This document shows positions 13,576 through 52,400 of a DNA stretch of 55,203 nt, one piece after another (within the stretch, counting starts at the first letter, position 1; each line of letters begins with the position of its first letter). The notes under the pieces were generated by a model. It did not search any database, was not told the DNA's origin, and was given only the letters and a program-made list of their open reading frames with translations. Source of the stretch: Candidatus Rifleibacteriota bacterium (GTDB taxonomy: Bacteria; Muiribacteriota; Ozemobacteria; Ozemobacterales; Ozemobacteraceae); NCBI GenBank assembly GCA_905236865.1, contig CAJOQX010000150.1, positions 1 through 55,203 of the forward strand, given 5' to 3'. A program made the position numbers and the translations under genes.

Positions 13576-13615
13576 TATTACTATGCAATAAGAATCTAGT
13601 CAATAAAAAAAAGAT

Positions 13616-22507: not shown

Positions 22508-22521
22508 AACTTAACTCCAAA

Positions 22522-23712
22522 TTACTTAATTCCAAAGGGTGATGGACCTGCAAAAGGAGAAGGACCGTTGAAAGAAGGATTTGGTGCAGAGCCATAAGGA
22601 GAAGGAACATTACGAGGAGCTGGTGATTGAGAGGCATTTCCATAAGAATTATTTCCAAGGTTTGCTTGTTGCTGTGGTGAAGGAGCACCTGAACGAGATC
22701 TTGTTTGGAACACTTCTTGGGATATGATTCCTTCGTTGAATAGTTTTTGTAAGGACTGATCCATTGTTACCATTCCCAAAGAATTGCCAGTTTGTATTGC
22801 AGTAGGAATTTGGAAAACTTTTCCTTCACGAATCAAATTAGAAATAGCTGCATTTACTACCATTATTTCTCTAGCAGCAACTCTACCAGACCCATCTTGT
22901 CTAGGTAATAGAACTTGTGAAATAACACCTTTCAAAGTGGTAGAAAGCTGTGCTCTAATTTGCTGTTGTTGATATGGTGGGAAAACGTCTATAATACGGT
23001 CGATTGTTTTTGAGGCAGATTGTGTGTGTAAAGTTGCAAAAACTAAGTGACCAGTTTCAGCTATGGTTATTGCGGCAGCGATTGTTTCTAGGTCACGCAT
23101 TTCGCCAATCAGAATAACATCTGGGCACTGACGCAAAACATATTTTAAAGCTGCTGTATAGCTTTCGGTATCTTTTCCTACTTCTCTTTGTTCTATTACA
23201 GACTTTTTATGAATGTGGACAAATTCGATAGGGTCTTCTACTGTGATTATATGGCAGGCTCTATTGGTGTTTATGTAATTAATCATAGCAGCAAGGGTTG
23301 TTGATTTACCGCTTCCTGTCGGACCTGTCACGCAGATTAAACCACTTGGCAGACTACAAAAATTAGATGTTACAGGTGGAAGCATCAAAGATTCAAAAGT
23401 TGGAATTTTGCTCATAATAGGTCTTAGAGCTGCACCAATTTTTCCCATCTGTTTAAATACATTAACACGAAACCTTCCTGAATCTGGAAATTCTATTGCC
23501 AAATCAAGTTCTGAATGTGTTTCAAATTCTATTTTTTGCTCTTCGTTTATAACGGAATAAATTAAAGATTGTAAATCATCGTCGTTTAAAGGGGTTGTTC
23601 CATCTGGTTCGAGACTTCCGTTTATACGTAGCATTGGAGGTCTGTCTGCTGTCAGAATAATATCTGATGTATTCTTTTTCATAGCCGAAGCTAGAATTTC
23701 TCTAAGATTCAT
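22522..23712 (-). CDS. pilT: Type IV pilus retraction ATPase PilT with a P/S/G-rich C-terminal tail of about 55 aa
   Basis: Walker A GPTGSGKSTT, Walker B/Asp box ILIGEMRD, His box ATLHT, and AIRNLIREGK-like AISNLIREGK. The tail is GAPSPQQQANLGNNSYGNASQSPAPRNVPSPYGSAPNPSFNGPSPFAGPSPFGIK. Confidence 0.9.
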   Translation of the reverse strand: MNLREILASAMKKNTSDIILTADRPPMLRINGSLEPDGTTPLNDDDLQSLIYSVINEEQKIEFETHSELDLAIEFPDSGRFRVNVFKQMGKIGAALRPIMSKIPTFESLMLPPVTSNFCSLPSGLICVTGPTGSGKSTTLAAMINYINTNRACHIITVEDPIEFVHIHKKSVIEQREVGKDTESYTAALKYVLRQCPDVILIGEMRDLETIAAAITIAETGHLVFATLHTQSASKTIDRIIDVFPPYQQQQIRAQLSTTLKGVISQVLLPRQDGSGRVAAREIMVVNAAISNLIREGKVFQIPTAIQTGNSLGMVTMDQSLQKLFNEGIISQEVFQTRSRSGAPSPQQQANLGNNSYGNASQSPAPRNVPSPYGSAPNPSFNGPSPFAGPSPFGIK

Positions 23713-33885: not shown

Positions 33886-36800
33886 TTATATTTCTATTAA
33901 GTTGGCACTAGATAAAGATTGTATAAGATAAACTTTTGAAGGTTTTGATTTTCCTTTAAAAGATACTTCACCATATTCTTCTGTTTTTATATCGTTTTTA
34001 ATTAAATCATATATTGTTTCTGATATTATTCTTCTGTCTGATTCCAATTTTTCACCAAAAACAGCGATTCTTGCAGATACGTTAACGGGGTCGCCAATTA
34101 TGGTGAAGTCTCTTTTTTCACCAACACCTAAATATCCAGAAATAACTTGACCATAAGTGACTCCGACAGAAACTTTGAATGGAAGACTTTCATTGGTTTC
34201 AATTAAATAAGCAACTTTTGAAGCTATAATAGCAATTTCTTTTTCTAAAGAATTTTCAAGATGAAAAGCTACAAGCATTTTCTCACCAATAATTTTATCT
34301 ATATCTCCACCATAATCTAAGACAATCTTAGATATTATAGCTATTTGATTTTTAAGCTTTTGGAAAAGTTGAATTATAGGTGTATTATTCATAATTTTAT
34401 CAAAGTTAGGAATAGTAACATATAGAAGAACTGTATCTATTTTTTTACTGGCAGTATCATTAGATGTTGAAGTTCCAATTAATGCCGATTTTGAAATCAT
34501 ACGATTCATGAGTTGTTTTTCTTCTAAAGATTTCATCATTTGGTTAAATGATTGACATAATTTTCCAACTTCGTCTTCTCTTGTATAAATAGTTCTAAAT
34601 GAGTAGTCTTCTTTTTTTGCAGCTTTAACTCCTAAAATAAGTTGTTTTATAGGAGCAAGTAAATCGGCTATAACAATATAAGCAATAAAACAAATTAATA
34701 TAAAAGAAAATAATATTGCTAATCCGAATTTAGGCAATTTATTGAATGATTCGTTAAAAATAAATTTTTCTGAAGATAAAGCAAAATATATTTTATCATT
34801 GGAATAGTTCCCTCTTCTACATTCTAGAAAATGATTTCCAAAACAGTCAATCTGACTAGAAACAGGGATAAAACTTGAGTTTAACCAATAATAATTAGTT
34901 AGTAATCCATTTAAAATTTCTGATTTACCAATAAAATCAGAATAAATTAAATTATTACCAACTTCTTTATTTATTGAATGAAATAGAAAAATTTTATTAT
35001 CTAAAGAACCAGAAGATATATGTTGTTCAAGAGAATAATTTTGTTGATTTGTTTGATTACAAACATAAGACAATAAATCATTGTCATACTTAATTATAGA
35101 AAATAGAACATAATCAGGTTTGTCTTGATTTGGAACAGGTATTGATATAAAACTAATGTAAGTATAATTTAAGGTTACTGTTTGATTAGAATTAGGATAA
35201 TTAACTAAATCAATAGTTATTTCATCTCCAAAAGCGGAATTAAAAGTTTTTGACAACATGCGAAAAATTTCTTCTCGTTTATAATTTTTAGAATTGTAAT
35301 TGTCAGAGTTAGAATCATCAGAACTAAAGAAAATATATTTAATATAATCTGAAAAAATTCTACCAAAAAAATCTAAATTATAACCATTTGAATCATTTCC
35401 AGAAGCAACAAAGTCATTTTTTGCTACGAGTAGTAATTCCAAAATTTTGTGATAATCTTTATTGGCAGTTTTATTACTTTGATTATTTTGGTTTTCAACT
35501 TTTAAAAAACCATTCTTTGTAATATGTTGTAGATATTTAAACTGCCCTATTATGTCTCTTTGTTTAATTCTTAACATTATTCTTGGACTTTCACTTTTAA
35601 TATTAAGCCATAAATTATAAAATGGAAGATAATATAGCTCTTTTCTTTCTAATTCATCAATTCGTGTGTTCATTTCAAATAAAGTTTCAGATTTTTTTAT
35701 ATTATAATCCTCAATAACATAAAGAATAGAAAGAAAAAGAACTATTAAAATCGGCATAAAAGCTGATAATAAAATATCAAAACTTAATTTTAAAGAAATA
35801 GAAGATTCAAATAAATTCTTTTTTTTATTTGCAAAACAAAGTATTATAATAAAAAAGAAAGATAAAGATAAAGGAATTAGAACTTTAAATTTTTCATAAA
35901 TTAGATGCAAATAAAAAAGGTTCTTTTTTATTATAAAAACTTTCCATTTATTATAGGTATTATCATTATAAATTGTTGCTATTTCAGATATAAATCCAAA
36001 ATTATCAAGTATTTTTTTATTTTCAATATTACTTTTTATAAAATTGATTTCTTTTTGAGAACAACCATTAGAAAATACCCAGTCATCTCCTTTATTTAAA
36101 GCTAAAAAGATATCTTTTCCTGCATTAAAAGTTATAAATTTAGGAATATTGATTTTATCTTTAAGAGTAGTTATGTCAACAGGGAATCCACATAAAAAAT
36201 CATATCCTGAAACTTTCTTGTTATTGTTTACTTTATCTAGAAAAATCCGTAAAAAATTTCCGTCAAATATTGTGTTATTGGTTTGTTTAAAGGAATTAAA
36301 TGTTCTATCAGAAAAAACATCTTCAAAATTATTAAATTTATAGGGGAGTAGATTTCTTGAATAATAATTATAGTTTATTTTACAACAATAAAGAGGAATA
36401 GGGCAACCTAGCTTGTCGTATTCCTCTCGTATTGAATTAATTGCTTCTTCTATTTTTCCTTTTGAATCATTAAAATTTATTTTTTTTCTTATTTTTTCAG
36501 AAAAATCTAAGCATTGTATATTAAAAGCTGACTTTAAAGCTTCATCAGAATTAATCTGTTCAAATAATCTTGTACATTCTTTGATTGATTGGGATTTTAA
36601 ATTTTCAGAATAAGTTGAATAGATAAAATTGATTCCAAAACTAATTAAAAATATTACAGAAATAACAGCGATAAAATTTAATAAATATTGCCAAATTACG
36701 TTAAATTTTGTTACTGATTTCTGCAATAAGAAAACTTTTGTATTATTTGATTTATTTTGATTTGTTGTATTCTCTTTTTCTTTGTTATTAGAAAAGATAT

Positions 36801-39800
36801 TTAATGATTTAGATAGATTACTTAAGTTACCTATTTCTTCAACTGTGTATGCAGAGAATAAATCTGTATCTAATTTTTTAAATCCAATTCCATTTTCTGA
36901 CATTCTTTTTGAAATTAATTCATCAGTAACAAGAGGAAAACTTGGATTTTGAATTGACAATGCTTCAAGTTTAGCTGCCTTTTTTAAAGGTTCTCCTAAA
37001 ATAGCATAATCAAGTCTTGAATCTATACTTCCAACAGTACCAGAATACATTGTGCCATAAGATAACCCAACACCTATTTTATAAACAAATAATCCTTTTC
37101 TTTTTCTTTTTGCATTAACAAAGGCTAATTTTGTTATCATTCTACAGCTTGCTTTAAAAGCTCTATATGAAGCTTTTTCAAGATTATCTTTTTCAGGGAA
37201 AATAGCTTCTATTGCATCGCCTATGAATTTATATATTTGCCCTCCGTTTTCTGATATTATTTTAGCCATTTCTGCAAAGTGATTGTTGAGTAAATCTGTT
37301 ATAATCGTAGGGTCATATTTTTCTGTCATTCCTGTAAAATTACGTATGTCTGAAACTAAGGCTACTCCTTCAAAAGTTTCTGTGTCATTTAATAAACCAT
37401 TACTTTTTTTCTCTAATGCTACTATGGCTTGATCAGATAATAATTTTGAAATACGGTCTTTTTCTTTTAGACCATCAATCATATTTGAAAACTCATTGGA
37501 AAGGTTTCCAAATTCATTTTGTGGTATACTTTGTAGAGATATATTCAAATTACCTATAGCAACTTCATCTAAAGCTTTTTTTAATTCTGAAACAGGTTTG
37601 ACAAAAACATTTGCAGCTCTAATACTGCAAATATAGATAATAAATAATGAAATCAATATAAGTATAATAAAAAAGTATTTTCTAATAATAACATTAAAGG
37701 TTATATCAAATTTATCTACCCAACCTACAAAAACTGTGTTTGAAAAATTCAAAGAAGGTATAAAAACAACTAGATTATCATCTATAGAAAAAGTATCTGT
37801 CTTTTTTAAATAGAATGTTTGTTTTGCAAGATCTGGTAATTTGTTAAGAAATTCCTTCGTAGCATGTCTAGTTTTATCGCCGATAGTTTTTATATTTTGT
37901 CCATCAATTCTATATGCAATAAAATTTTGATTTTTATTTTTTGATGAATAATAATTAAAAGACTCTTTTATAATTCTATCATCAAGGTATTTATCTTCCC
38001 ATATAATTAATAATATATACTTTATTTTTCCATCTATTTTAATTAAATCAAAAAGTTGATAGATGCACAAAGAACCTTTTTTTACCGAAACAGGGACAGA
38101 AAAATTTTGTTGAAATTCATCTTTTAGTGATACTTCTGACATTGAGTCATAACATTTATTAACCGTTTTTCCTATTTCTATTTCTATTTCCTCTAATTCA
38201 TCTATTTCTTTCTCAAATTTAATATTGGGAGTTTCACTAGCTATCTTTTCTCTTAATATATCAATCTGAGTTACAAGTAAAGCATTTATAATAATTTCAG
38301 TATTGGTTGAAGATATAATTTTTTTATTGGTTTTTTTAAAATTTGAATCTATATTTTCAATTCTTTTCTCATTTAAATTTATATTAGTTTTTATTGATTT
38401 TGAATATCTTCCTTCAACAAGGGCGCCTCTACCATTTTCATCTAAAATTTTAACTCCTAATATCGGCAAAGATTTCTTAGAATCCTCTGATTCAAATTTA
38501 TCTAAAACATATCTAGCAGCCGATTCGTCTTCAATACCTTTTTCTTTTATTAAATCTATAAGTTTTTTTTCATTTAAAACTTTTGTAAAAGTAGCTTTAT
38601 ATTCTCTTACGTTATTCATTTTTTTTGCATCAGTAGATTTTAAATTTGTCTGAATTTCAGATAATTCTTTGTTTATGGAAGTTTTTTGATACTCCAAAAT
38701 ATAGGCATAAGCAGTTGCTAATAAAATAGATAAAGGTAAAAAAGATGCAAGCATATAAGAAATAGCAAATCTAATTTTTAAAGAAAATTTAAAATTGAAA
38801 TCAAAAAATATATAACAATATATAATTATAAATAATATATAAACGTCTATAAAATCAAAAAGAATAAGCCATTTTGGTAAGGTTTTTGTTTTTATTGATT
38901 TAACTAAAACAACAGCGATACGAAAAGACCCTCTGGCTAGAAATTGATAAGCCGTATAATTTCCTAATTCATCTCCTTGTGGAAGTGAATTTTCAAGCCA
39001 TTTATTTGCAACTTGTAAATCATGGATAGTTATTTTACTAGCCCATTCAGAGAAAAGTGTAGATTTATCTAAAGGGTATTGAAGAATTGGTTTTCCAAAA
39101 ATATTACTATTTCCGTCACCTTTATATAATGGAATAAAAGCTCCTAGACCCTTAAATCTTTTTTTTAAATTTTTAAGAGCAAGTCGTTCCGCTATTTCTT
39201 GATTAGTTTTATCTACTTTATAAAGAAAAATGACACCAAAAGTACCTTTACCTTCTATAAATACATAATCCCAAATAAACCAAGAAGCTTTATGGACACC
39301 GTTAGTATGAGTTGGTAATCCACGCATTGCCTTAGCAATAGACTCAGGGGAAGTAAATTTACCAATTAACTGTTTAACAAAATTTTTATTAACATTTAAA
39401 TCATCTAAGCTTGTATAATTATAATAATTAATTTTATATAACTGTTCAAAAGCTTTACATATAGCAGTTTTCCCTATTAAATTTTTATTGTCATTCGTAA
39501 ATATTAGGTTCGTTTTCTTTGTTTGAGAATCAATTTTAAAAGTGTATAAAAAATAATCTTGTGGAAAAGGTTCTTCAAAAATTTTATCAGCAGATTTTTT
39601 TATATGTTTTACAATAAAAGATTTATCTTTATAGTTTAATTTAACATCATTTCTAAAAGTATCAAAAAATTTACTAAAAAGAGATGAAATCTGATTTTTA
39701 AAATCACCTTCTGAAGCTAAGGTTTCAGCTTCATGCATAGCTTTTTTTTCTTGTTCTTTTATTTCAAAATATTCATTTATTTTTGAAGTGTAGTAATAAC

Positions 39801-39879
39801 TAATATTGAATGCTAAAATAGGTATAATAAATAGTAGAATTGTTAAGATAATATTATATTTTTTAGATGTATTAGTCAT
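33886..39879 (-). CDS. Giant multi-pass membrane receptor with two HAMP plus class III adenylate/guanylate cyclase modules (paralogue 1 of 3; 1997 aa)
   Basis: One uninterrupted ORF with about 8 hydrophobic helices bounding four extracytoplasmic regions of 300-400 aa. CHD1: VALVSDIRNFTG...GGQIYKFIGDAIEAIF...RLDYAILGEPLKKAAKLE. CHD2: VLLYVTIPNFD...GGDIDKIIGEKMLVAF...RDFTIIGDPVNVSARI...GEVSFKGKSKPSKVY. It starts 21 nt after the paralogue 2 stop. Confidence 0.85.
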   Translation of the reverse strand: MTNTSKKYNIILTILLFIIPILAFNISYYYTSKINEYFEIKEQEKKAMHEAETLASEGDFKNQISSLFSKFFDTFRNDVKLNYKDKSFIVKHIKKSADKIFEEPFPQDYFLYTFKIDSQTKKTNLIFTNDNKNLIGKTAICKAFEQLYKINYYNYTSLDDLNVNKNFVKQLIGKFTSPESIAKAMRGLPTHTNGVHKASWFIWDYVFIEGKGTFGVIFLYKVDKTNQEIAERLALKNLKKRFKGLGAFIPLYKGDGNSNIFGKPILQYPLDKSTLFSEWASKITIHDLQVANKWLENSLPQGDELGNYTAYQFLARGSFRIAVVLVKSIKTKTLPKWLILFDFIDVYILFIIIYCYIFFDFNFKFSLKIRFAISYMLASFLPLSILLATAYAYILEYQKTSINKELSEIQTNLKSTDAKKMNNVREYKATFTKVLNEKKLIDLIKEKGIEDESAARYVLDKFESEDSKKSLPILGVKILDENGRGALVEGRYSKSIKTNINLNEKRIENIDSNFKKTNKKIISSTNTEIIINALLVTQIDILREKIASETPNIKFEKEIDELEEIEIEIGKTVNKCYDSMSEVSLKDEFQQNFSVPVSVKKGSLCIYQLFDLIKIDGKIKYILLIIWEDKYLDDRIIKESFNYYSSKNKNQNFIAYRIDGQNIKTIGDKTRHATKEFLNKLPDLAKQTFYLKKTDTFSIDDNLVVFIPSLNFSNTVFVGWVDKFDITFNVIIRKYFFIILILISLFIIYICSIRAANVFVKPVSELKKALDEVAIGNLNISLQSIPQNEFGNLSNEFSNMIDGLKEKDRISKLLSDQAIVALEKKSNGLLNDTETFEGVALVSDIRNFTGMTEKYDPTIITDLLNNHFAEMAKIISENGGQIYKFIGDAIEAIFPEKDNLEKASYRAFKASCRMITKLAFVNAKRKRKGLFVYKIGVGLSYGTMYSGTVGSIDSRLDYAILGEPLKKAAKLEALSIQNPSFPLVTDELISKRMSENGIGFKKLDTDLFSAYTVEEIGNLSNLSKSLNIFSNNKEKENTTNQNKSNNTKVFLLQKSVTKFNVIWQYLLNFIAVISVIFLISFGINFIYSTYSENLKSQSIKECTRLFEQINSDEALKSAFNIQCLDFSEKIRKKINFNDSKGKIEEAINSIREEYDKLGCPIPLYCCKINYNYYSRNLLPYKFNNFEDVFSDRTFNSFKQTNNTIFDGNFLRIFLDKVNNNKKVSGYDFLCGFPVDITTLKDKINIPKFITFNAGKDIFLALNKGDDWVFSNGCSQKEINFIKSNIENKKILDNFGFISEIATIYNDNTYNKWKVFIIKKNLFYLHLIYEKFKVLIPLSLSFFFIIILCFANKKKNLFESSISLKLSFDILLSAFMPILIVLFLSILYVIEDYNIKKSETLFEMNTRIDELERKELYYLPFYNLWLNIKSESPRIMLRIKQRDIIGQFKYLQHITKNGFLKVENQNNQSNKTANKDYHKILELLLVAKNDFVASGNDSNGYNLDFFGRIFSDYIKYIFFSSDDSNSDNYNSKNYKREEIFRMLSKTFNSAFGDEITIDLVNYPNSNQTVTLNYTYISFISIPVPNQDKPDYVLFSIIKYDNDLLSYVCNQTNQQNYSLEQHISSGSLDNKIFLFHSINKEVGNNLIYSDFIGKSEILNGLLTNYYWLNSSFIPVSSQIDCFGNHFLECRRGNYSNDKIYFALSSEKFIFNESFNKLPKFGLAILFSFILICFIAYIVIADLLAPIKQLILGVKAAKKEDYSFRTIYTREDEVGKLCQSFNQMMKSLEEKQLMNRMISKSALIGTSTSNDTASKKIDTVLLYVTIPNFDKIMNNTPIIQLFQKLKNQIAIISKIVLDYGGDIDKIIGEKMLVAFHLENSLEKEIAIIASKVAYLIETNESLPFKVSVGVTYGQVISGYLGVGEKRDFTIIGDPVNVSARIAVFGEKLESDRRIISETIYDLIKNDIKTEEYGEVSFKGKSKPSKVYLIQSLSSANLIEI
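33930..34660 (-). other. Paralogue 1: HAMP-2 plus cyclase homology domain 2 (metal-Asp-negative, Lys/Thr/Asn/Arg-positive)
   Basis: DTVLLYVTIPNFD is encoded at about 34399-34437 and DFTIIGDPVNVSARI at 34066-34110. The HAMP domain starts at APIKQL (about 34660). Confidence 0.75.
36905..37605 (-). other. Paralogue 1: HAMP-1 plus cyclase homology domain 1 (metal-Asp-positive, Asn/Arg-negative)
   Basis: VSDIRNFTG is encoded at 37330-37356, KFIGDAIEAI at 37201-37233, and DYAILGEPLKKAAKLEA at 36961-37011. The HAMP domain starts at VKPVSEL (about 37602). Confidence 0.75.
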
Positions 39880-39900
39880 TTTTTTTCTATATCATTTTAA

Positions 39901-42900
39901 CTAACAAAAACGGTAAATTTTCATAGGGAGCGACTTACCTTTTAATTGAAATTCACCATATTCTTTAGTTTTAACAATATCATGAACTAAATTGTTTAAA
40001 TTTTCAGAAATTAAGCATCTTTCAGACGCTAAGTTTTCAGCAATGCTTTCTATTCTTGCTGTAACATTGACAGCATCACCTATTACAGTAAAATCTCGTT
40101 TATTTCCAATTCCAAGAAATCCATTGATTACTTCTCCATAGTTTAAACCTAGAGCAACAGGGAAAGTAATTCTTTTGGTTGTTTCATTATCTATTATTTT
40201 TTTTGCAACTTTGCAAGCTGATGACAAAGCCTGTTTTTTATTATTCTTTTTGATGGGGAAAACAACAAGCATTTTTTCTCCAATAATTTTGTCTATTTCT
40301 CCCCCATCTTTCATAATTAACTCAGCAATTATAGCAGTCTGCTTCTTTAGAGAATCAAAAACAAACTCTTTGCTGTATCTTGCTAAATATTTAGTAAAAT
40401 TAGGAATTCCAATATATAGGAAAATAGAATTTGATTTTGTCGAATTTTGAAAATCTTCACTAAGAGTTACTGCTCTTGCTGTTTTAGAAAGCATTCTAGA
40501 CATCATTCGCTTTTCGTCAAGACCTTTTATCATTTCGTCAAAAGCGAAGCACAAAGACCCTAATTCATCGGTTCTATCAGAATCAATTCTAAAAGAAAAG
40601 TTCTCTTTTTTTACTTCTTTTATGCCTTCTAGCAAAATATTTATTGGATAAATAATATCATTGGTGATATTTCTTGTAGTTTCAACTATAAGAAGTATAG
40701 ATATTGCTATAAGAATATAAAACAAATAAGTCATTTTTTTTATTTTATCATAAATGTTATTTTCAGGGTATGTAAAAATTAACATTGAGTAATAATGTAA
40801 ATGTGAAGGCATTGCTTCAATAAGATAAGATTTGTTGTTTATTGTTAATTTATCTGATATGGGAAGATTTGATATAGATAGCCAAGATCCATAATTACCA
40901 AAAGAAATTCTGACGTTATTATCTTTACATTCATCAATTTTACCATAATTAAGATTATCAATTGGATAAATAGCATAATCTGAAGATATTTCTTTTGCTA
41001 AACGCAACAAATAATCATAAGTATTAAATTTTATTATCCATGTTAAATATGATTCAGCATTTTTATAATCTGGAGCAGGGGAAATATAAAGGCCTAATCT
41101 GCCTATACCAATATTTAAAATTATAGGAATTTTTATTGCATTTGATAGTTTAACAAATACGTCAGCTCCAAAATATGATTTTATTGTTTGCAATCCCATT
41201 TCTTTATAAATATCATTAGCTATAAGTTCTCCATTAATTGAATTTTCTTGACGATTAAAAAGAGATTTAAATATTTTGTTGAGCAATGTTCCAATTTTCT
41301 TTTTTTGGTCAGAATTTTTATTGTCCAAATAACTAACTGATTGTTTTATTGAATTGTTAGTTGTTTCTTCTTTTTTCTTAGACAAATTTAAATTTAAATC
41401 CCAACTATTTTTTCCTGTAATTGAAATATCAGAAATAGAATAATTTGTAATTAAATTTTCTTCTTCTGTATAGTGATTAGTTTCGTTTTCCCATTTACAA
41501 ATAATTCGTTCTAATTCTTTACTTTCTTTTATATCTTTTATATCTTTTATATCTTCTATATCTTTTTTATCTTTATTTATTTTTAATTCTTTAGAGTATT
41601 TATTTAATATTATACTATTTTCAATAAGTTTTTTGTTATCGTTCTTAACCTTTATTAAATTCCAAACAAGTGGAACCCCAAAATCAATTTTATCTTCAAA
41701 ATCTTTACTAAAGCTTTGTATTTTATCTCGTTCTTGAGCAACTTTAACAAAATAAAATTCATTTACAAATAATTTGAATACAAATGACATTGTTAAGAAA
41801 GGAACTACAGCCACAATAAGCAAAGCAAGCCATAATTTTGAAGCAATTGTTTTGTTAAATATTGATTTCCCTTTTATTATTCCAATTAAAATATATAACA
41901 TAAAAATAGATATGACAAAAACGATAAAATTAGTTAGAGCTAATGGAATATAATTATTTTTATAGAATTTTGCTAAGTAAATATTGTAAGACTGATTATT
42001 AAATTCTATTTCATCTTTTTTGATATATTTTTGATTGTCATCATCGTTGTTGACAGAAGCCAAAATATGATTTGGATTTTTTAAATAATTAGGAACATTT
42101 TTAGAATAATGCCATTCTTCTTTTTCTTTTTTAGTTTTGTGTAGGAAAACTAATCTTTCATTTTTAGAATAAAGATTTAAAAGCATTTGCAATGATTCAG
42201 AGGCAGATTTTGTAGGCATTAACAAAACTAAATAGCCAATTAATTCTTCTGTATTATTATAAAAATCTAGTATATAAATATAATGTTTTTCGTTGTGAAA
42301 ATTAACTTCATAAGCAGTATTTATCTTTTCATTTTTTAATAAAGTTATTGGTAATTTTTCACCAAAAACTTCTTTGCTAATATCTCCGTATTTTCCAGCC
42401 ATATATTCTTTGTATGGCAACTGGAATTGGTCTATTTCAGATTTATCTAATTTATTTTTTTCAGAAATACTATCTAGAATATTTAATGCTATTGCAACTC
42501 TATAACTAGAACATATTTTTTCTATTTCCTTTTCATTAAAACCAGTGTTTGACAATGTGTCTAATTTTATATTATCAACAAAATGAGTATTATTAATATC
42601 TAATTTATTTATAGAATTATCAACTTTTATAAATATTTTGCTTAGATTTAATTCTTTAAAAATACTATTGGAATTATAATAATTATTGATACTGTTATTG
42701 ATTAATTCATTTATTTTTGTTTTATTCTCTGAATCAGAAATATCAGAATTTAAAGCATAAGCAAAATCTCTACAAAGTGAATCGAAAGCATTTATTCCAA
42801 AATCTTTTTGCTTTAATTGTTCCAAAACCCTTTGTAAATCGGTTTCTATTAATTGTTTTTGATTCTCTATAGACAGACTGTTTAATAAATAAAATCCACC

Positions 42901-45900
42901 AGCAAGTAAAGCAGAGAGTAATATTATAAAAAATAAACCAGATAATAGTTTTTGGTTTAATGCAAAAGCTTCTTCTTTTTTAGATATTTTATATGAATTT
43001 ATAACGTTATTTTTAACTTTATTGTTGTTCAAAACAGTCTTATTTTGAGATACTTTTTCGGCACGAACTAAATCATCTTTTTTTTCTGTTAAAAATATAT
43101 TTAAACCATTATCTGTAATTTTAAAACCTTCTAAACCATTTTCATTTTTAAAAGACAAAAAATCAATACCCACAAAAAATTTCTTAAATACATTAATAAA
43201 ATCTTTATCTACAACAATTGGAAATTCTGGATTAAACTTAGAATAGCTTTCTAATTTTTCTGCTTTTTTTAATGTATCTCCTAATATAGCATAATCTAAT
43301 CTTGTATCTATACTGCCAATTGGTCCTGAAGACATTTCGCCATAACTTAAACCTATACCTATTTTGTAATCAAAAAGACCTTTTTCTTTTCTTTGTTGAT
43401 TAATTGTATTTAAAGAATTAAGAATTTCAACAGAAGCAGTAAAGGCTCTTTCTGCTGAACTTCTAGTAAAATCATCATTGTCTGCGAATACAGCTTCAAC
43501 AGCATCTCCAATAAATTTATAAATACGTCCGCCATTTTCAGAAAATATTTTAGTCATCATGGCAAAATGTTCATTTAAAAGATTCGTAATTTCATCTGGA
43601 GAGTATAATTCACACATTCCTGTAAAATTTCGTATGTCAGAAACTAAAAATGTTCCATTAAATGTTTCTACATCAGAATTAGTAAACTCATTTTTCTTGT
43701 TTAATGCTTCAACTGCGTGATCAGAAAGTAGGGTTGCTAATCTGTTTCTTTCAGAAAGCTCTTTTGTCATTTCACTAAATTCTCTACAAATATCACCAAA
43801 TTCGTCTTTGCTATTGTTTTTTATTTCTATGTCTAAATTTCCTCTTTTTACATTATCTAATGATTCTTTTAAATTACTTATTGGGATTAATAATATTTTA
43901 GATAAATAATTAAAACAAGCAAATAAAATTATCAAAGCAAGAAGAATAACTATAATGAAAATAGTAACTTTCCAGAAAATATTATTGTAAAGAACATTAT
44001 TAAATATCCCACCAATAATATATAAACCTTCATATTGTCTTGATGGAACTACAACAGCAGTAAGCTGATTGTCGTTATAAGAAACAGCTTTTTTTCTTAT
44101 AGCAGCAGTATTAACTAATTTTAAACTAATTTGTTTGTATTCTTCTTCATGACGTTTGTATGTTTCATATTTTGCACTTTGTGCCTTTTTGCTTTCTGGC
44201 CAAGGTTTTATTTCTTGAGATGTTTTTTCTCTTTTTTCATAAGCAGAAAAAAAACATTCTCTTGTCTTATTGTCCAAATATAGACTATCTAATGTTGATA
44301 TATAAGTATCTAAGTCTAACTCGTTAGTATCCCAAAAAAGATATAGTATAAAGCGAGGAACACCGTCTACTTGAATATATTCATGAATATGATTGATATA
44401 TCTATCTCCAATTTGTCGATTGACAATTAAACCAGCTCTTTTTTCTAAATCATCAGAGAGAGAAGTTGATTTGTCGCCTAAAGCCGCTTCATAACCAATT
44501 TTTGTAAAATCTGTCAATGCTTCAATTTTTTTACTTTTATTAGTATTTTCCTCTTCATTTTCTTTCCATCTTCTTGGTTTATTATGATTTTTTATTTTAT
44601 TTTGTAATGTTTCTAATAAAGAAGATGATATTGAATTTAGAGAATTATCATTTAAAGCTTTATCTTTTATTAATTTTTTCTTTTCAGCTTCGTTATTATA
44701 ATTTAACTCATTTTCCTGATTATCTATTTTACAATAAGTATAAGAAAGATTTCCTGATAAATTAGTGATGTAATTCCCTTTTTCGTCTAGTATTGTTACT
44801 GTTAGAAATGGAAGCTCTTTTTTATTCCATTTCTTTAAAAAAATGTCTATGACAGTCTTTGCAACAGGTAAAAAGTCATTTTCTATTATATTTTTTGTTT
44901 CTTCTTTTTTTATTTTTTCAAATTTTTTTAATGATATTAATTCATTTTCTTTCTTTTTTTCCAAATTATTGATTATTTCATCTAATTTATTATCTATTAT
45001 TATATTTCTTTCATCTAATTTTTTAAAACTTTCTAAGAATAAACTGTCTTGTTTTATTTTGTGAAAAGCAGTTCTATATTTTTCTTGGTATTTAATTTTT
45101 TGTAAATCAAACTTATTTATATAATTTCTTAGTTTTGTCTGAGCGTTAAACGAAAAAGAAAGAGTATATTCCGAAATGTATCCATAAGATATTATTGCCA
45201 ATAATCCCAACGGAATACAAGATGCTAAAAAATATGTGGTAATAAACCTTGTTTTAAGCGACATCTGAGGCCAAATGCCCCAAAATATGCCTCTTAAAAG
45301 TAATATTATAATTATTAATATAATTAAAAAATCAAATGAAATTAACCAAGTTGGTATCTTGTTTCTTTCTTTTTTAGGAATCAATAAAACAGTAGCATGG
45401 GATTGTTGTGGAGCAATGTGAAAAAAAGCTTGATAATTACCAATTATATTATTCTTTCTTTTATCAGGTTTTAAATTAAGTTGCCAATCGCATAAGTCTT
45501 TAATACTTTTTGGTGACCATTTCTTTTTTAATTCATTAAATTCAGGCATAATGGCAAACTCTTTTGTTGTTACAACACCACTATAACCTGGAAATAAAGG
45601 AATAAAACAGCAGTATTTCTTTTCAGATTCATTTTTCTGAGAATCTCTAAAATCTTTTAAAGTAATTAATTTACTGTCTTTTTCTAATTCATCACTATTG
45701 TTGACAATTAATAAAAAGCCATAAATATCACCATTAGATTCGTTTGCATTAGATTGGTTTTCAAAATAATTCCAATATATTCTGTTAGATTCTAGATTAT
45801 AAAATGCATAAGAAGCCTTTCCGCATTGTGTTTCTGCTATTACTTCTGGGTCACATTCTCCTCCAAAAACATTTTTAGCTATAATTGCTCCTTTTTCTTT

Positions 45901-46425
45901 TTCTGATTCATAGTTATTATAATTATAATTTGAATTGGCAATATTAACTTTAACAAGGTATTCAAAAGTTATTTCTAATGCTTTTTTATTCTTGATATTT
46001 TGGTTATTATTAAAGATTATTTTTGGCTTTCCATGATTTTCTTTATTAATCTTTGGAAAATGAAATACTAAAAGTTCATGTTTTGGAAATGGGGCTTTAA
46101 ATATTTTTTCTGCCTTTTTTGAAACGAATTCTAATAATCTTTTTCTTTGTTTTTCTTGAGGATATGTTTTAACCAAGGATTTAAGATTATTATAAAAATC
46201 TTTTGCTAATTGCTCAAAACAATTTTCAAAATTCGCTTTGTAAGCTAAATCTTCGACTTCTTGTTCGGATTGTGCAATTCTTTTTTGTTCTTCCCAATGT
46301 GTATCTATGTAGTTAAGAAAATACCAGCCAAAATTCAATAGAATCAAAGGTAAAAGCCATAGAACAATAGGTAAATATCTGTTTTGGCTTAAAAATTTAC
46401 TTTTTGTTGCTATATCTTTAATCAT
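39901..46425 (-). CDS. Giant multi-pass membrane receptor with two HAMP plus class III cyclase modules (paralogue 2 of 3; 2174 aa)
   Basis: Collinear with paralogues 1 and 3. CHD1: FLVSDIRNFTG...GGRIYKFIGDAVEAVF...RLDYAILGDTLKKAEKLE. CHD2: IFLYIGIPNFT...GGEIDKIIGEKMLVVF...RDFTVIGDAVNVTARIE...GEFQLKGKSLPMKIY. It starts 23 nt after the paralogue 3 stop. Confidence 0.85.
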   Translation of the reverse strand: MIKDIATKSKFLSQNRYLPIVLWLLPLILLNFGWYFLNYIDTHWEEQKRIAQSEQEVEDLAYKANFENCFEQLAKDFYNNLKSLVKTYPQEKQRKRLLEFVSKKAEKIFKAPFPKHELLVFHFPKINKENHGKPKIIFNNNQNIKNKKALEITFEYLVKVNIANSNYNYNNYESEKEKGAIIAKNVFGGECDPEVIAETQCGKASYAFYNLESNRIYWNYFENQSNANESNGDIYGFLLIVNNSDELEKDSKLITLKDFRDSQKNESEKKYCCFIPLFPGYSGVVTTKEFAIMPEFNELKKKWSPKSIKDLCDWQLNLKPDKRKNNIIGNYQAFFHIAPQQSHATVLLIPKKERNKIPTWLISFDFLIILIIIILLLRGIFWGIWPQMSLKTRFITTYFLASCIPLGLLAIISYGYISEYTLSFSFNAQTKLRNYINKFDLQKIKYQEKYRTAFHKIKQDSLFLESFKKLDERNIIIDNKLDEIINNLEKKKENELISLKKFEKIKKEETKNIIENDFLPVAKTVIDIFLKKWNKKELPFLTVTILDEKGNYITNLSGNLSYTYCKIDNQENELNYNNEAEKKKLIKDKALNDNSLNSISSSLLETLQNKIKNHNKPRRWKENEEENTNKSKKIEALTDFTKIGYEAALGDKSTSLSDDLEKRAGLIVNRQIGDRYINHIHEYIQVDGVPRFILYLFWDTNELDLDTYISTLDSLYLDNKTRECFFSAYEKREKTSQEIKPWPESKKAQSAKYETYKRHEEEYKQISLKLVNTAAIRKKAVSYNDNQLTAVVVPSRQYEGLYIIGGIFNNVLYNNIFWKVTIFIIVILLALIILFACFNYLSKILLIPISNLKESLDNVKRGNLDIEIKNNSKDEFGDICREFSEMTKELSERNRLATLLSDHAVEALNKKNEFTNSDVETFNGTFLVSDIRNFTGMCELYSPDEITNLLNEHFAMMTKIFSENGGRIYKFIGDAVEAVFADNDDFTRSSAERAFTASVEILNSLNTINQQRKEKGLFDYKIGIGLSYGEMSSGPIGSIDTRLDYAILGDTLKKAEKLESYSKFNPEFPIVVDKDFINVFKKFFVGIDFLSFKNENGLEGFKITDNGLNIFLTEKKDDLVRAEKVSQNKTVLNNNKVKNNVINSYKISKKEEAFALNQKLLSGLFFIILLSALLAGGFYLLNSLSIENQKQLIETDLQRVLEQLKQKDFGINAFDSLCRDFAYALNSDISDSENKTKINELINNSINNYYNSNSIFKELNLSKIFIKVDNSINKLDINNTHFVDNIKLDTLSNTGFNEKEIEKICSSYRVAIALNILDSISEKNKLDKSEIDQFQLPYKEYMAGKYGDISKEVFGEKLPITLLKNEKINTAYEVNFHNEKHYIYILDFYNNTEELIGYLVLLMPTKSASESLQMLLNLYSKNERLVFLHKTKKEKEEWHYSKNVPNYLKNPNHILASVNNDDDNQKYIKKDEIEFNNQSYNIYLAKFYKNNYIPLALTNFIVFVISIFMLYILIGIIKGKSIFNKTIASKLWLALLIVAVVPFLTMSFVFKLFVNEFYFVKVAQERDKIQSFSKDFEDKIDFGVPLVWNLIKVKNDNKKLIENSIILNKYSKELKINKDKKDIEDIKDIKDIKESKELERIICKWENETNHYTEEENLITNYSISDISITGKNSWDLNLNLSKKKEETTNNSIKQSVSYLDNKNSDQKKKIGTLLNKIFKSLFNRQENSINGELIANDIYKEMGLQTIKSYFGADVFVKLSNAIKIPIILNIGIGRLGLYISPAPDYKNAESYLTWIIKFNTYDYLLRLAKEISSDYAIYPIDNLNYGKIDECKDNNVRISFGNYGSWLSISNLPISDKLTINNKSYLIEAMPSHLHYYSMLIFTYPENNIYDKIKKMTYLFYILIAISILLIVETTRNITNDIIYPINILLEGIKEVKKENFSFRIDSDRTDELGSLCFAFDEMIKGLDEKRMMSRMLSKTARAVTLSEDFQNSTKSNSIFLYIGIPNFTKYLARYSKEFVFDSLKKQTAIIAELIMKDGGEIDKIIGEKMLVVFPIKKNNKKQALSSACKVAKKIIDNETTKRITFPVALGLNYGEVINGFLGIGNKRDFTVIGDAVNVTARIESIAENLASERCLISENLNNLVHDIVKTKEYGEFQLKGKSLPMKIYRFC
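39904..40660 (-). other. Paralogue 2: HAMP-2 plus CHD2
   Basis: SIFLYIGIPNFTKY is encoded at about 40395-40440 and DFTVIGDAVNVTARI at 40051-40095. The HAMP domain starts at IIYPINILLEG (40623-40658). Confidence 0.75.
43190..43890 (-). other. Paralogue 2: HAMP-1 plus CHD1
   Basis: VSDIRNFTG is encoded at about 43618-43646. The domain ends near NPEFPIVVDKD (43201-43233). The HAMP domain starts at IPISNLKES (about 43888). Confidence 0.75.
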
Positions 46426-46448
46426 AACCTTATGTTCTACTAATTTAA

Positions 46449-49400
46449 CTAAAGTAATTGATAAACTTTCATTGGTTTTGATTTCCCTTTAAGTTCAACT
46501 TCTCCATAATTATTAGTTTTAAAAGCATTGTTAATTAAATTAAAAAATGACTCTGAAATCAAACATCTATCTTTTTCCAATTTTTCAGCAAGATTTTCCA
46601 ATCTAGCTGTAATATTAACAGCATCTCCGATAACAGTGAAATCTCTTTTATTCCCAATTCCCAAAAATCCGTTAATCACATTACCAAAATTTATACCTAT
46701 AGCTATAGAAAAAGGAAGTTTGTCTGTGTTTTCTATTTCAATTAGACGTTTTGCTGCCATACAAGCAGTTTTTGCTACTAGCATTTCGTCTTTTTCTTTT
46801 TTTATTGGGAAGACAGCTAATATTCTTTCACCTATTATTTTATCTATTTCTCCGCCTTCTTCAATTATGATTTTAAAAATAGTCACGGTTTGTTTTCTTA
46901 GTTTTTCAAATATTTCTCTGTCTTTCATACTTCCATTATATGAGGAAATATTAGGTATACCAATATAAAGCATAACAGATTCAGACATATTAGATGAAGT
47001 TCCATCTCTTAAAATAAGTCTTTTTGCAGTATTAGACATCATTTTACTCATAGTTCTCTTTTCTTCAAGCCCTTTTACCATTTTATCAAAAGAAGAACAA
47101 ACAGCTCCAAGCTCATCTTTTCTATCAGAATTAATTCTATAAGCAAAATTTTCTTTATTAACTTCCCTGATACCATAGATTAAACTTTTAATAGGATTAA
47201 TAATATCGTTAGCAATGTTCCTTGTTGTAGCAATAATAATTATTAATGAAATTGCAAGTAAGACATAAAAGACAACAGAGAAGAGCGTTAGTTCTTTAGC
47301 TAAATCTTCCATTGGAAATGTAACTATGGTTAAAGAATTTTGATTATCTAAAGAACTTCTTCCTTCAACATAATATGAAAATTTATTGTCTAATTTACAA
47401 TAATCTGAAATTGGTAAATTGGTAGTAGCAATCCAAAAAGCATATTGTCCTAAAGGAATGCGCCAATAGTTGTTGTTTCTTTTATATATTTCTCCATATT
47501 TATTTTTTTCTATGAAATAAATTGAATATTTTGTGTTTATATTTTTTGAAAGATTAGAAAGATAATTAATGCAGTCAAAATCGATTACCCATATTATTAG
47601 AGTTTCTGGATTTTCTTCATTTGATAATAGAGAAAACATTAAACCCATTCTGTTGTTACCATAGTCAAAATAAATCGGCATATTAATGCCATTAACCATT
47701 TTTAAGAAAACTTCATCACCTAATACATCAACATTAATTCTATTTTTTTGTTTTATTTCATTATTTTCATCAAAATTATTATTATTCCTACAAAAGATAT
47801 ATTCAGAAAAATCTTTTAATATATAATTCAGTTTTTTATTTATTTTGTTATCTGAATTAATAATTCGGCTATCTTTTTCATCTAAACATATATTCCAACC
47901 ATTTTTGTCAAAAACGAAAATATTGTTTATTCTGAAATTTACAGGTTCTGTAGTGTTTATTTCCCAAGGTTTTCTTTCGTTTGCCCATAAAAGAATTAAG
48001 TTATGTATATTGTTTAATGCTTCAGATCTAGAATCTTCGGAAACTTCTTTAGAATTTATTGCTTTTATTAGGTCTTTAAGTTCTTCTGATTTATTTTTAT
48101 TATTAACATAGTTCCATATTAATGGAGTATAAAATTTGTCTTTTTTTTCAAACACGTCTGAAGAACGCAACATATCCATTTTACAAACAGAGCTTTTTAT
48201 AGAATGAAATTCATTTCTAAATAAACCAAAGACAAATGAAACAGCAATAACAGGAATTACGGCAACAACCAGTAAAGTCAACCATAATTTAGCCGAAATT
48301 GAACGATTTATACGAGATGTGCCTTTTGAAATTTTATATAAACTAATAAAAATAAAGATAATTATTATAGACACGCAAATTAAAGCATTTGTCGGATTGC
48401 CTTCGTTTAATTTGCATAATTTTGTTATATATAGTTCGTAAGGTTTGCCAGAAATATATTTTTCTCCACGGCAAGTTACACCAAGTATTTTATTTAAATA
48501 ATCGTTACCGATGTATTTTATATCATTTGCGTCAATAGTTGAGTTTTTGGTGGATTTCAGTATGTTATACCTAGCTAAATTCGGAATATTATCTGAAAAA
48601 TACCATTCGTTTGTTTCTTTATTTTTTAAGGAAACCCAACCTTCATTTTTTGAATAAGCACTCAATAATATTGGGATAGAGTCTCTAACTTGATTGGCTG
48701 GCATTGCAACAATAAAATAACCAATAAGTTTATTGCTATTATTTTTGAAATAATCTATCCAGTATATAAAATACTTTTTCCCTTTATAAAAACAATCTAA
48801 AGAATTATTTTTTGCATTATTCTTAAAAACATTTAATGTAAGCTTATTACCAAAAACATTAACAGAAGGTTCTCCATACTTTTCTTCTATGTATTTTTTT
48901 GAATCATTTTTAAACGAAATATAGTCTGATTCGCCTAAATAAAGTTTTTTAGATATTTTATCTATAGAATCTAAAGCTGTTATTATTTTAAAACTATTAA
49001 CAATGTTGTCTGTATCATTTTCAGAAAATCCTTTGTTCGCAATAGGTTTTAAAGCTATTTTATCAATGAAAGACTTATCGATGTTGTTTATTTCTCCAAA
49101 AGAATCAACTTTTATAAAAATAGAGTTAATTTCTGTATTTAAAAGACTTTTATCTGATATAACAATATCATTTATATAATTACTAATATTAATTTCGTTA
49201 AATTCTTTTTCTGTAGATTCATCTATTTTTTTCTGTAAAGATAAAGCGATTTGTCTAGCTTTTATATCAAAAGTTGTTTTTCCAGAATCATCACTAAGAA
49301 TTTGCTGTAAAAATCTATTGTTTTCAGTCGATAATGAAATTTTTTCTATATTATTGGCATTAGTGAAAACGAAATAGATACCAGAAATCATTATAATTGC

Positions 49401-52400
49401 AAGAATACAAACAAATGTTAGACCTGGAATAAATTTTCTTTTAAAAGAAAATTTCTCTTCTATTTCAAAAGTTTCAATGACATTTTTTTCGTGATTAGCT
49501 TTCTGAGAAGAATCGGTATTATCAATGTAATTGTTTTTGTCTAGTTCCTTTGTTTTATTAAGGAACAAATCAATGCCTTCATTATCTACTTTAAAACCTT
49601 CTATTGTGCCTTTTTGGTCTAATTCTGTAAATTTAATTTCGGGAAATATTTGGCTGAAAATATCTATAAATTTTTTGTCTACTACTAGTGGAAATTCTGG
49701 ATTGTGAATAGAATTGCTTTCTAATTTAGAAGCTTTTTCCAATACATCTCCTATAATTGCATAATCTAATCTGGTTTCTATGTTTCCAACAGTTCCTGAA
49801 GACATATTTCCATAGCAAAGTCCTATGCCAATTTTATAATTAAATAACCCATTATTTGTTCTTTCTGTATTAATTTCCTTCAAGCAATTAAACATTTCAA
49901 TAGCTGTTTTAAATGCTCTTTCAACAGAACTTCTGCCTAAATTATCGTTATCTGCAAAAACAACTTCAATAGCATCGCCTATATATTTATAAATTCTTCC
50001 GCCATTAGAAGATATGATTTTTGTCATTTTCGCAAAATGATTGTTTAGCAATTCTGTAATCTGGTCTGGATTATATGTTTCACACATTCCTGTGAAATTT
50101 CTTATATCTGAAACTAAAGCAGTTCCATAAAAAGTTTCTACATTTGAATAATCACTACTTATTTCATTTTTACTTAAAGCTTCTATAGCATGGTCTGAAA
50201 TTAATGTTGCAAGTTGGCTCCGCTCATATAGTTCTTTGGTCATATCGCTAAATTCGTGACACATCATGCCAAATTCATCTTTACTTTGACTTTTTATTTC
50301 TATATTGAAATTTCCATCTGAAATTTTGTCTAATAGTATTTTCAATCTTGTGATTGGTTTTAAAAATATTATTGAAGAATAGTATTCGCAGGAAATAAAA
50401 ATCATTAATGCTAGTATAATTACAGAAATACATATCCAAAATCTTTTAAAAACATCTAGATTTAAATTGTGATAAAAAACACCACCAACAATGATAGTAT
50501 CTTTGAATTTCTTTAAAGGAACAGCGACAATAAACATATTTTTATTCCTATTAGAAACGCTACTTTTTCTAAAATAGGCTTGTTTTATCAAATTAATACT
50601 AGAATCTTCAAATTCTTGTTTATGGCGTTCTCCTTCTACTGCCCATGGCTTAATACCTTGTGAATTAACTTTATATGCTGCAAAAGTAAAACTAGATTCA
50701 TTTATTCCGAAAAATCTCTCAGTGTCTTTATATGATTTCTCATCTAAATCATTTTCGTCAACATATAATAATAGTAAATAATCTTTATCCTTCAAAAGAA
50801 TGTTTTTTGTAAAGACAATTAAATTTTTATTGCCATATAATTTGTCTACAACATTATTGTCGTTTGAATGGTAAAAGTATGGTGATATCTTGTTACCAAG
50901 ATTAGCAAGACAATTTCCATTGTTGTCGTTTATAACAAAAGATTTTATGGGTAAAGAACGGCTTTCATTGTTTATTAAATTTAAAACAATAGAAAAAATG
51001 TTTAAAGCCTCATGCGATAAATTAGTAGAATCATGATTTAATGTTAAATCTAGTTTTTGTAAAGAATTAATTACAGAAGAATTTTTCTCTACTTCATCGA
51101 GAATATTTCTGTAATCATTTTGCAACTGCATTTTATGCTTATCAAATTCAGAAATACAAATTTTAAGCTTTGTTTGATATTTAGCTATTGAAGTATACTG
51201 GTATTCGTAAATATAGCCATAAGAAGCTATTATTAACAAACCTAAAGGTAGGCATGAAGCGAGAAAATATGTTGTTAAGAATCTAACTTTTAAGGAAGTG
51301 TGTATCCATTTTTTTAAGACAAAACCACGAAATAATAAAACTATTATAATAATAAAAACAAATACATCTAAAACTATTAACCAAATAGGAAAATTATTTT
51401 GAACTTTTGGAATAAATAATGCGGCAACATTGGTTTGATTAGGGTCGATATGAAAATAAGCATTATACTCATCTGAAAAATTATGATATTTTATACTGTT
51501 TATTTCTTTTTTTTGCCATTGAGACAATTCGTTAATATCTTTAGGAATTAAATTTTCTATTTTTTGAAATAATTCTGTGTTTTTAACTAATTCTTCACTA
51601 GCTGTAATGCCTTCATATCCTGAAAACAAAGGAATAAAAGCAGCGAATCTTTTTATATTATTATTTTTTTGATTTTCTTGAAACTCTTTAATGGCTATTT
51701 TTCGCCCTGATTCTTCTGTTTGTTTATTGTTGTCTACAAATATAAAATAGCCAAAAATATCTCCTGTTTCTTCTCTATTAAAATAATCCCATATAAAAAA
51801 ACTAGGTTTTTTATTGTAGGTTGAAAAAGATGTTTTCCCTCTTTGGCTTCTTGCAAAAATAAAAGATTCAGAGTTGTTTCCAAAAATATTGCCAGCTAGT
51901 TTTTCGTAAGCTTTTTTACTATCAGGTGAAAGATTATTCTCGTTATTTATTTTTACAAAATATTCAAAAGAAGCATTCAATGCGTCTTTATTATTTAATA
52001 TTTCATTGTTGGAATATATTATTTCTGTCTTATTTGTTTTTGAGTCAATTTTAAAGACAATCAAATCATGTTGCGGAAAAGGACTTCTAAATAAACTATC
52101 TGAACGATTTTTTATATAAGGAATCAAAGCGTTCTGTTGCTCTAGCCCATGAAAAAGACTGGTGTCTGACTTCAATAAATCACAGAATCTATTTGAAATA
52201 GTTAAAAGACAGTAAGAAAAATCAGACTTTGCCGATAAAAGTTCAATTTCTTGATTAGCGTTTTCTATTTGTTCTTGTTTCTGCCAAAAACTATCTATAG
52301 AAACAAAAAAAATCCATCCAATATTTATAAGAAGTAAAGGGAATAACCAAAGTACAATTGGAGTAACTTTATTTTGTTTTGTTTTGTTAATAGTCTGTTT

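Follow-up and report, generated by a model that had tools for sequence, protein, structure and literature searches.

Organization of the cyclase genes

The window analysed here is a stretch of 55,203 nucleotides from a Candidatus Rifleibacteriota genome (contig CAJOQX010000150.1, assembly GCA_905236865.1). It contains three tandem genes, designated A, B and C, each encoding a large membrane protein with two cyclase homology domains (CHDs). The residues that make up a class III cyclase active site are divided between these domains such that the first (CHD1) is C1-like and the second (CHD2) is C2-like, and each of the three proteins is probably an adenylyl cyclase of class IIIb and of the receptor type, in which a single chain forms a pseudo-heterodimer.

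Gene A (33886..39879, 1997 residues), gene B (39901..46425, 2174 residues) and gene C (46449..52418, 1989 residues) are complete open reading frames (ORFs) on the minus strand, separated by 21 bp between A and B and by 23 bp between B and C. An earlier note on this DNA had placed the arrangement at 33930-50370; the genes reach somewhat further, from 33886 to 52418. The three proteins are paralogues, protein B sharing 28-46% BLASTP sequence identity with A and about 41% with C. An exact-sequence look-up of protein B found no record.

Domain architecture and internal duplication

Proteins A, B and C each comprise two copies of a module consisting of a transmembrane (TM) segment, a loop of ~300 residues, two TM segments, a loop of ~340 residues, a fourth TM segment, a HAMP domain and a CHD. 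In a Kyte-Doolittle scan, each of the three proteins showed eight hydrophobic segments, and their positions are homologous. Their Pfam content is limited to HAMP and to two Guanylate_cyc (PF00211) stretches per protein; the PF00211 scores, 87.6-102.6 bits where the cut-off is 21.9, place the proteins in class III. The best PDB sequence matches are likewise class III cyclases, namely CyaB, bPAC, OaPAC, CyaC and soluble adenylyl cyclase (sAC). NCBIfam holds no model for this architecture and returned sub-threshold matches to the HAMP region only.

The HAMP domains, encoded on the minus strand as are all features of these genes, directly follow the fourth and the eighth TM segments (TM4 and TM8) in protein A. 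HAMP1 of A (37462..37617, about residues 755-806) was assigned from partial NCBIfam HAMP-region matches over residues 728-815 and from a helix-connector-helix arrangement in the AlphaFold2 (AF2) model, and its boundaries are approximate. HAMP2 of A (34519..34662, residues 1740-1787) matches Pfam PF00672 with an E value of 1.5e-10. Pfam identifies two HAMP stretches in each of B and C. HAMP1 of B (43747..43908, about residues 840-893) was positioned by alignment with A and HAMP1 of C (50217..50378, about residues 681-734) also by alignment, both approximately, and the Pfam matches define HAMP2 of B (40519..40656, residues 1924-1969) and of C (47061..47213, residues 1736-1786).

The two halves of the proteins are homologous along their entire length, a feature that is new. 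Alignment by hhalign of the family profiles of the N-half and the C-half preceding the CHDs extends from end to end over 685 columns, with a probability of 99.5%, an E value of 4e-23 and 15% identity; therefore the whole module was duplicated and not the CHD alone. CHD1 and CHD2 are 31% identical, and ~800 residues that include four TM segments lie between them. The large extracytoplasmic loops of A span residues 30-338, 390-734, 1084-1330 and 1390-1719. In A, B and C alike, none of these loops matches a Pfam or NCBIfam family. The AF2 model of a natural fragment of A exhibits long helices followed by alpha/beta domains in the loop regions, and its Foldseek matches are dominated by the CHDs and assign no sensor fold. 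The periplasmic loops appear to constitute an orphan sensor that is restricted to one phylum.

Catalytic residues of the six cyclase homology domains

The CHD boundaries were defined by hmmsearch and the catalytic positions by phmmer alignments to bPAC (PDB accession number 5m27 and related entries) and Pseudomonas aeruginosa CyaB (3r5g). The six canonical positions are given here in the order metal Asp 1, substrate Lys, metal Asp 2, Thr, Asn and Arg. The earlier note had quoted nine sequence patterns as common to the three paralogues, and each was found once per ORF at homologous positions. A proper alignment might have placed the listed residues elsewhere than in the active site; instead, the motifs of A, B and C fall on the FFSD, KFIGD, DHT and GDAVNVAARLE catalytic motifs of the class IIIb references, and aligning the six CHDs with MAFFT gives the same placement as phmmer.

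CHD1 of A (36835..37389, residues 831-1015) has D844, K884, D888, A959, K966 and K970 at these positions, CHD1 of B (43111..43677, residues 917-1105) has D930, K970, D974, A1046, K1053 and K1057, and CHD1 of C (49581..50147, residues 758-946) has D771, K811, D815, A887, E894 and K898; the residues of B and C were placed by the MAFFT alignment. The two metal-binding Asp residues that the earlier note had recognized in CHD1 are thus present at the catalytic positions, and the transition-state residues are replaced as it had stated, Asn by Lys or Glu (K966, K1053, E894) and Arg by Lys (K970, K1057, K898). Beyond that description, CHD1 also retains the substrate Lys and carries Ala in place of Thr.

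CHD2 exhibits the reciprocal pattern. The residues are T1822, K1862, E1866, T1926, N1933 and R1937 in A (33919..34455, residues 1809-1987), G2006, K2046, E2050, T2113, N2120 and R2124 in B (39904..40449, residues 1993-2174), and G1820, K1860, E1864, T1928, N1935 and R1939 in C (46452..47000, residues 1807-1989), again with MAFFT placement for B and C. The first metal Asp is replaced by Thr or Gly and the second by Glu, and the substrate Lys, the Thr and the intact Asn/Arg motif are kept in all three, in agreement with the assignments made earlier from the motifs. In A, B and C, as in ~100 relatives, each CHD1:CHD2 pair thus contains one full set of the six canonical catalytic residues.

Conservation across the family

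A search of 5.8 billion proteins yielded 48 homologues, comprising 46 two-CHD proteins of 1902-2164 residues and two truncated ones; one of the 48 is named Candidatus Riflebacteria. Together with the proteins of the window, CHD1 carries the Asp-Lys-Asp set in 51/51 sequences and never the Asn or the Arg, and CHD2 carries Lys, Thr, Asn and Arg in 49/49 and never the first Asp. A wider set was obtained with a profile of the N-half sensor against 1.84 billion representative sequences, which found 140 proteins, 53 of them further fused two-CHD members. In these, CHD1 has both Asp residues in 53/53, and CHD2 has the Lys, Asn and Arg in 53/53 each and the Thr in 52/53. Neither Asn plus Arg in CHD1 nor both Asp residues in CHD2 was seen among the 53, and a second complete site occurs in none of the 102 two-CHD proteins examined. 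The pattern of reciprocal loss is far beyond chance. Each domain keeps exactly what the other has lost although the sequences are only 30-60% identical, as is characteristic of selection acting on a single common site.

The positions that would line the second pocket are also conserved among the close relatives. In CHD1, Lys occupies the Lys, Asn and Arg positions in 51/51, 49/51 and 48/51 sequences, respectively, and Glu occupies the second metal position of CHD2 in 47/49.

Thr, not Asp, is found at the second substrate-specifying position, and the closest similarity is to class IIIb enzymes. The occurrence of Thr in CHD2 (49/49 and 52/53) and the matches to CyaB, bPAC, OaPAC, CyaC and sAC support the earlier proposal that the Lys/Thr pair is of the ATP type and class IIIb-like, and ATP is thus the predicted substrate. 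Class III enzymes of unusual specificity exist, and the proteins might be active and yet form a product other than cyclic AMP (cAMP), such as cyclic GMP or another cyclic nucleotide. This is most improbable considering that the CHD2 Lys/Thr pair is that of ATP-specific class IIIb enzymes, that the best sequence matches are adenylyl cyclases, and that Thr405 of sAC C2 contacts adenine (PMC12250328).

All organism-named members of the family belong to Candidatus Riflebacteria, Rifleibacteriota or Ozemobacteraceae. Tandem arrays occur in other genomes. In the European Nucleotide Archive (ENA) scaffold WILK20-1 scaffold_230 (positions 1-21964), at least five genes for proteins of ~2000 residues are adjacent, four of them with cyclase domains on record; the first gene of the array, cut by the end of the locus, has no Pfam match on record, and a HAMP-GAF-GGDEF gene comes next after the array. 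The rumen metagenome-assembled genome (MAG) RUG334 (positions 3980-16264) carries two or more cyclase genes encoding ~2000 residues in tandem, and was the only locus returned by the scan of the genome collection.

Structure models of the domain pair

Two AF2 models of protein A were computed. The first is a deletion construct of 551 residues, in which HAMP1-CHD1 and 30 further residues are joined to HAMP2-CHD2, predicted with an alignment to full-length homologues. Its mean predicted local distance difference test (pLDDT) score is 79, rising to about 90 within the CHDs, and its predicted template-modelling (pTM) score is 0.71. The best PDB matches of this model in Foldseek are single-chain pseudo-heterodimers, aligned over both CHDs. 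Human sAC aligned over ~500 columns with an E value of 2e-20 and a template-modelling score (TM-score) per target of 0.60-0.66. The soluble domain of AC9 also aligned with both CHDs, with a TM-score per target of 0.69-0.72, and the single CHD of 3r5g aligned over 192 columns only. The second model, of the natural fragment comprising residues 801-1997 (1197 residues), has a pLDDT of 75 and a pTM of 0.57. Its best matches are full-length AC5, AC9 and AC8 over ~1200 columns, with TM-scores per target of 0.33-0.40, values that correspond to about the contribution of two superposed CHDs. The models are consistent with head-to-tail packing of CHD1 and CHD2, without proving it.

PDB entry 6yii from P. 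aeruginosa also matched both CHDs of the deletion model, with a TM-score per target of 0.56. This entry is a bacterial single chain, which indicates that chains with tandem CHDs are not unknown in bacteria; unlike A, B and C, it is soluble, is 473 residues long and lacks membrane, sensor and HAMP modules. Its title, 'Class III adenylyl cyclase-like ATP-binding protein', raises the alternative that A, B and C are not cyclases and serve as nucleotide-binding receptors or scaffolds whose CHD pair only binds ATP. Catalysis in the family is deduced from sequence and models, which leaves room for such a role. Nonetheless, the six catalytic residues distributed across the pair show little or no variation among ~100 sequences that share 30-60% identity, a signature of selection for catalysis and not for binding alone, and a cyclic-nucleotide-binding protein is encoded 11 kb away. 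A purely binding function is therefore very unlikely.

Split two-gene relatives

Among the 140 matches to the sensor profile are 16 apparently full-length single-module relatives of ~940-1020 residues, and the CHD is C1-like in all 16. A homodimeric ancestor resembling Rv1625c, that is, a single module with all six residues, was sought among them and not found; none of the 16 is predicted to be self-sufficient. In the four Riflebacteria loci examined (L003, L004, L005 and L007), a C1-like single-module gene is followed immediately by a C2-like one, an arrangement that is new. In L003 (Ca. Riflebacteria MAG GCA_015233565.1, genes 8001-10970 and 11078-14092), the six positions read DKDSKH in the C1-like and GKDTNR in the C2-like protein, and the two genes are 108 bp apart. 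In L005 (DRDSNY, then RKEANR) and L007 (DKDVEE, then LKETNR), the stop and start codons overlap, and at the remaining locus the genes nearly abut. L004 (GCA_964472075.1, 57% G+C, 2782-11995) comprises three genes, C2-like (NKETNR), C1-like (DKDTAH) and C2-like (AKGTNR). The location of one C1-like gene between two different C2-like genes suggests alternative heterodimers with a common metal-binding subunit.

The order C1-like then C2-like is common to the split genes and to the domains of the fused proteins. In a neighbour-joining tree, computed without support values, the C1-type domains form one clade, whether fused or single, and the C2-type domains another; four single-module proteins are basal within the C1 clade. 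The split genes and the tree clades together imply that specialization predates fusion. Two module types that are linked by fusion or fission are classically taken to act jointly, and the adjacent-gene relatives show that the C1-like and C2-like modules belong together. Single-module members are not self-sufficient enzymes on this evidence, which calls for caution in their annotation.

The split forms bear on whether the complementary site forms within one chain. Covalent linkage is evidently not needed for pairing, the gene order of L004 suggests a choice of partners, and arrays of three to five or more paralogues are common, all of which would suit a site formed between chains or among the A, B and C paralogues, in higher-order or combinatorial receptor complexes. 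On the other hand, fusion with a strict C1-then-C2 order and complete duplicated membrane modules is the arrangement expected if one chain replaces a dimer, and both AF2 models are compatible with pairing within the chain. Pairing between chains is considered unlikely, and CHD1 and CHD2 of the same polypeptide are taken as the probable partners in A, B and C.

Comparison with known cyclases

Bacterial class III cyclases are described as monomers that homodimerize, and the pseudo-heterodimer fusion is placed in early eukaryotes (PMC4821796, PMC9552081, PMC9433096). The literature search found no description of a bacterial membrane class III cyclase that is pseudo-heterodimeric or heterodimeric from two genes; the main subscription-journal reviews lay outside the search, and an earlier description is possible. 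A search for literature on cyclases in Riflebacteria returned nothing relevant.

The earlier note had likened A, B and C to the vertebrate transmembrane adenylyl cyclases (tmACs) AC1-9, which are class IIIa enzymes of the arrangement TM1-C1-TM2-C2. The principle is the same, in that a single polypeptide contains two homologous membrane-plus-CHD halves, C1 carries the metal Asp pair, C2 carries the Lys, the specificity residue, the Asn and the Arg, and one site is catalytic and the other degenerate. However, the similarity is that of an analogue and not of a relative. Each half of A, B and C has four TM segments with two large periplasmic loops, whereas each half of a tmAC is hexahelical; each CHD is preceded by HAMP; at the specificity position, Thr as in class IIIb takes the place of the Asp that forms the class IIIa Lys/Asp signature; and CHD1 keeps the substrate Lys. 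In phmmer comparisons, the match of CHD2 to IIC2 is only marginal (E = 3e-3 to 5e-3), and for CHD1 no tmAC C1 was matched. The duplication is also independent, with split forms extant in Riflebacteria. An architecture of class IIIb with 2 x 4 TM segments plus HAMP, and not of class IIIa with 2 x 6, indicates that the division of labour arose independently of the eukaryotic tmACs.

In sequence, sAC (ADCY10) is nearer to A, B and C than the tmACs are. It is likewise a class IIIb pseudo-heterodimer and is the best Foldseek match of the CHD1 plus CHD2 model. In sAC, C1 contributes Asp47 and Asp99 and C2 contributes Thr405, and bicarbonate is bound in the degenerate pocket via C1 Lys95 and Arg176 (PMC12250328). 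Judging from the motifs, K884 of A would correspond to sAC Lys95 and K970 to sAC Arg176, with the difference that CHD1 of A, B and C has Lys and not Arg at the transition-state Arg position. Unlike A, B and C, in which a membrane/sensor module of ~800 residues separates the CHDs, sAC is soluble with a short C1-C2 linker, and the proteins do not belong to the sAC family.

The split relatives at L003, L004, L005 and L007 resemble soluble guanylyl cyclase (sGC) alpha/beta in comprising two homologous subunits with complementary catalytic residues. In contrast to these membrane proteins with HAMP domains, of which A, B and C are the fused version, sGC is eukaryotic, GTP-specific, regulated by haem and NO, and soluble. 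Like A, B and C, the membrane-bound class III cyclases of other bacteria, such as Mycobacterium tuberculosis Rv1625c/Cya, have a membrane anchor or receptor, a helical transducer and a CHD, and their activity requires a CHD dimer. Mutant complementation has been used on Rv1625c constructs (D300A with R376A; PMC4821796). Rv1625c is a homodimer with six TM segments and two equivalent sites (PMC9433096, PMC9552081), whereas a homodimer of like domains of A, B or C is predicted to be inactive.

Gene neighbourhood

The neighbouring genes are ordinary bacterial ones and encode RapZ, YhdP, a GlmM-like mutase, PurD, a TolC-like OEP protein and a PilT/T2SSE ATPase; this gene content (RapZ, YhdP, OEP and others) indicates that the window derives from a diderm bacterium. 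The G+C content of the three cyclase genes is about 25% (24-26%), compared with 31-34% in the flanks and 29-36% in the neighbouring genes, which could result from the Asn/Lys/Ile-rich composition of the loops, from relaxed constraint or from a different origin. In a scan of this AT-rich DNA, promoter-like and terminator-like sites were not commoner than in shuffled sequence.

An ORF of 777 residues with C-terminal RCC1 repeats (52515-54848, minus strand) lies 96 bp upstream of the cyclase genes on the same strand and is possibly in one operon with them. The RCC1-repeat protein has no NCBIfam match. The gene table of the WILK20-1 locus contains no RCC1-family gene, and the link thus seems not to be conserved there. 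In the interval 21521-23712 (minus strand), directly beside the gene of the PilT/T2SSE-type ATPase and 11 kb from the cyclase genes, a 328-residue protein is encoded that contains a cyclic-nucleotide-binding domain; its GAF_2 match is weak and falls short of the Pfam cut-off. The organism accordingly appears to use cyclic nucleotides, and this protein is a possible cAMP effector tied to a pilus or secretion function. The window also encodes a protein with the signalling-associated HDOD domain (9960-11411, plus strand).

Proposed mechanism and its limits

The residue pattern that the earlier note described was confirmed, and its interpretation is supported with refinements, namely class IIIb, 2 x 4 TM segments plus HAMP, the Lys of CHD1 and an independent origin. 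Its prediction of one catalytic and one degenerate site per polypeptide draws support from the catalytic positions, from ~100 relatives, from the AF2 matches and from the adjacent split genes. The sequences show the origin of this design: an ancestral module of four TM segments, two periplasmic sensor loops, HAMP and CHD underwent duplication, and the copies became specialized before they fused. In protein A, CHD1 would provide the two metal-binding Asp residues, D844 and D888, and CHD2 would provide K1862 and T1926 for adenine binding and N1933 and R1937 for stabilization of the transition state. A complete site would form only in the head-to-tail CHD1:CHD2 pair, and CHD1:CHD1 and CHD2:CHD2 pairs would be dead. 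Ligand binding to the periplasmic loops would be transmitted through TM4 and TM8 to a HAMP1/HAMP2 bundle and from there to the CHD pair, thereby setting the rate of cAMP synthesis from ATP.

The second pocket would be lined by K884, K966 and K970 of CHD1 and Glu1866 of CHD2. The substrate Lys retained by CHD1 indicates that this pocket is not fully stripped. One may speculate that it binds a regulatory anion or nucleotide as in sAC; given that its positions vary in the wider family, a regulatory role is only a possibility.

Several points weigh against this reading. Sequence and models establish the residue pattern and how widely it is kept, the duplication within the proteins and the occurrence of split genes, whereas that the proteins catalyse, prefer ATP, pair within the chain and signal along the route given above is what we infer. 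The variability of the degenerate-pocket residues in the wider family weakens the case for a conserved regulatory site. With sAC and tmAC structures in its training set, AlphaFold would be prone to a head-to-tail arrangement for whichever two CHDs it is given, and the deletion construct is artificial and forces the CHDs together, so that the docking is consistent with the idea but is not independent proof of it; the packing geometry was itself deduced from TM-scores. Pairing could occur between chains or between the paralogues A, B and C. Finally, the title of 6yii, a solved bacterial tandem-CHD protein, describes ATP binding and not cyclase activity, which cautions that a complete-looking architecture is no guarantee of catalysis.

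Significance

The C1/C2 principle itself is well known; a bacterial, class IIIb, HAMP-coupled version of it contradicts a textbook generalization. With only ~15% identity between the N-half and C-half sensors, one chain could integrate two different periplasmic signals. A more far-reaching reading, offered tentatively, joins these elements: an undescribed family, apparently restricted to Riflebacteria, would have invented, independently in bacteria, the asymmetric cyclase in which only one of the two sites is catalytic and the other is degenerate, with the intermediates still extant as adjacent alpha/beta genes and fused 8-TM chains. The sensor halves would be asymmetric as well, such that two periplasmic signals could be integrated through a HAMP1/HAMP2 hetero-bundle into a single site, and the Lys-lined second pocket could add an allosteric input like that of sAC.

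On the main reading, the pseudo-heterodimer solution arose independently in bacteria, in class IIIb and coupled through HAMP domains to periplasmic sensors, with the two-gene and the fused stages both preserved. Such a tractable series would amount to a natural experiment on the evolution of cyclase asymmetry, and it may offer a prokaryotic system in which genetics and structure can address what the degenerate site and the two non-identical membrane or sensor halves do, questions that apply also to the mammalian tmACs. For the organisms themselves, which belong to an uncultured phylum, tandem amplification to three to five or more paralogues points to a wide range of sensing.

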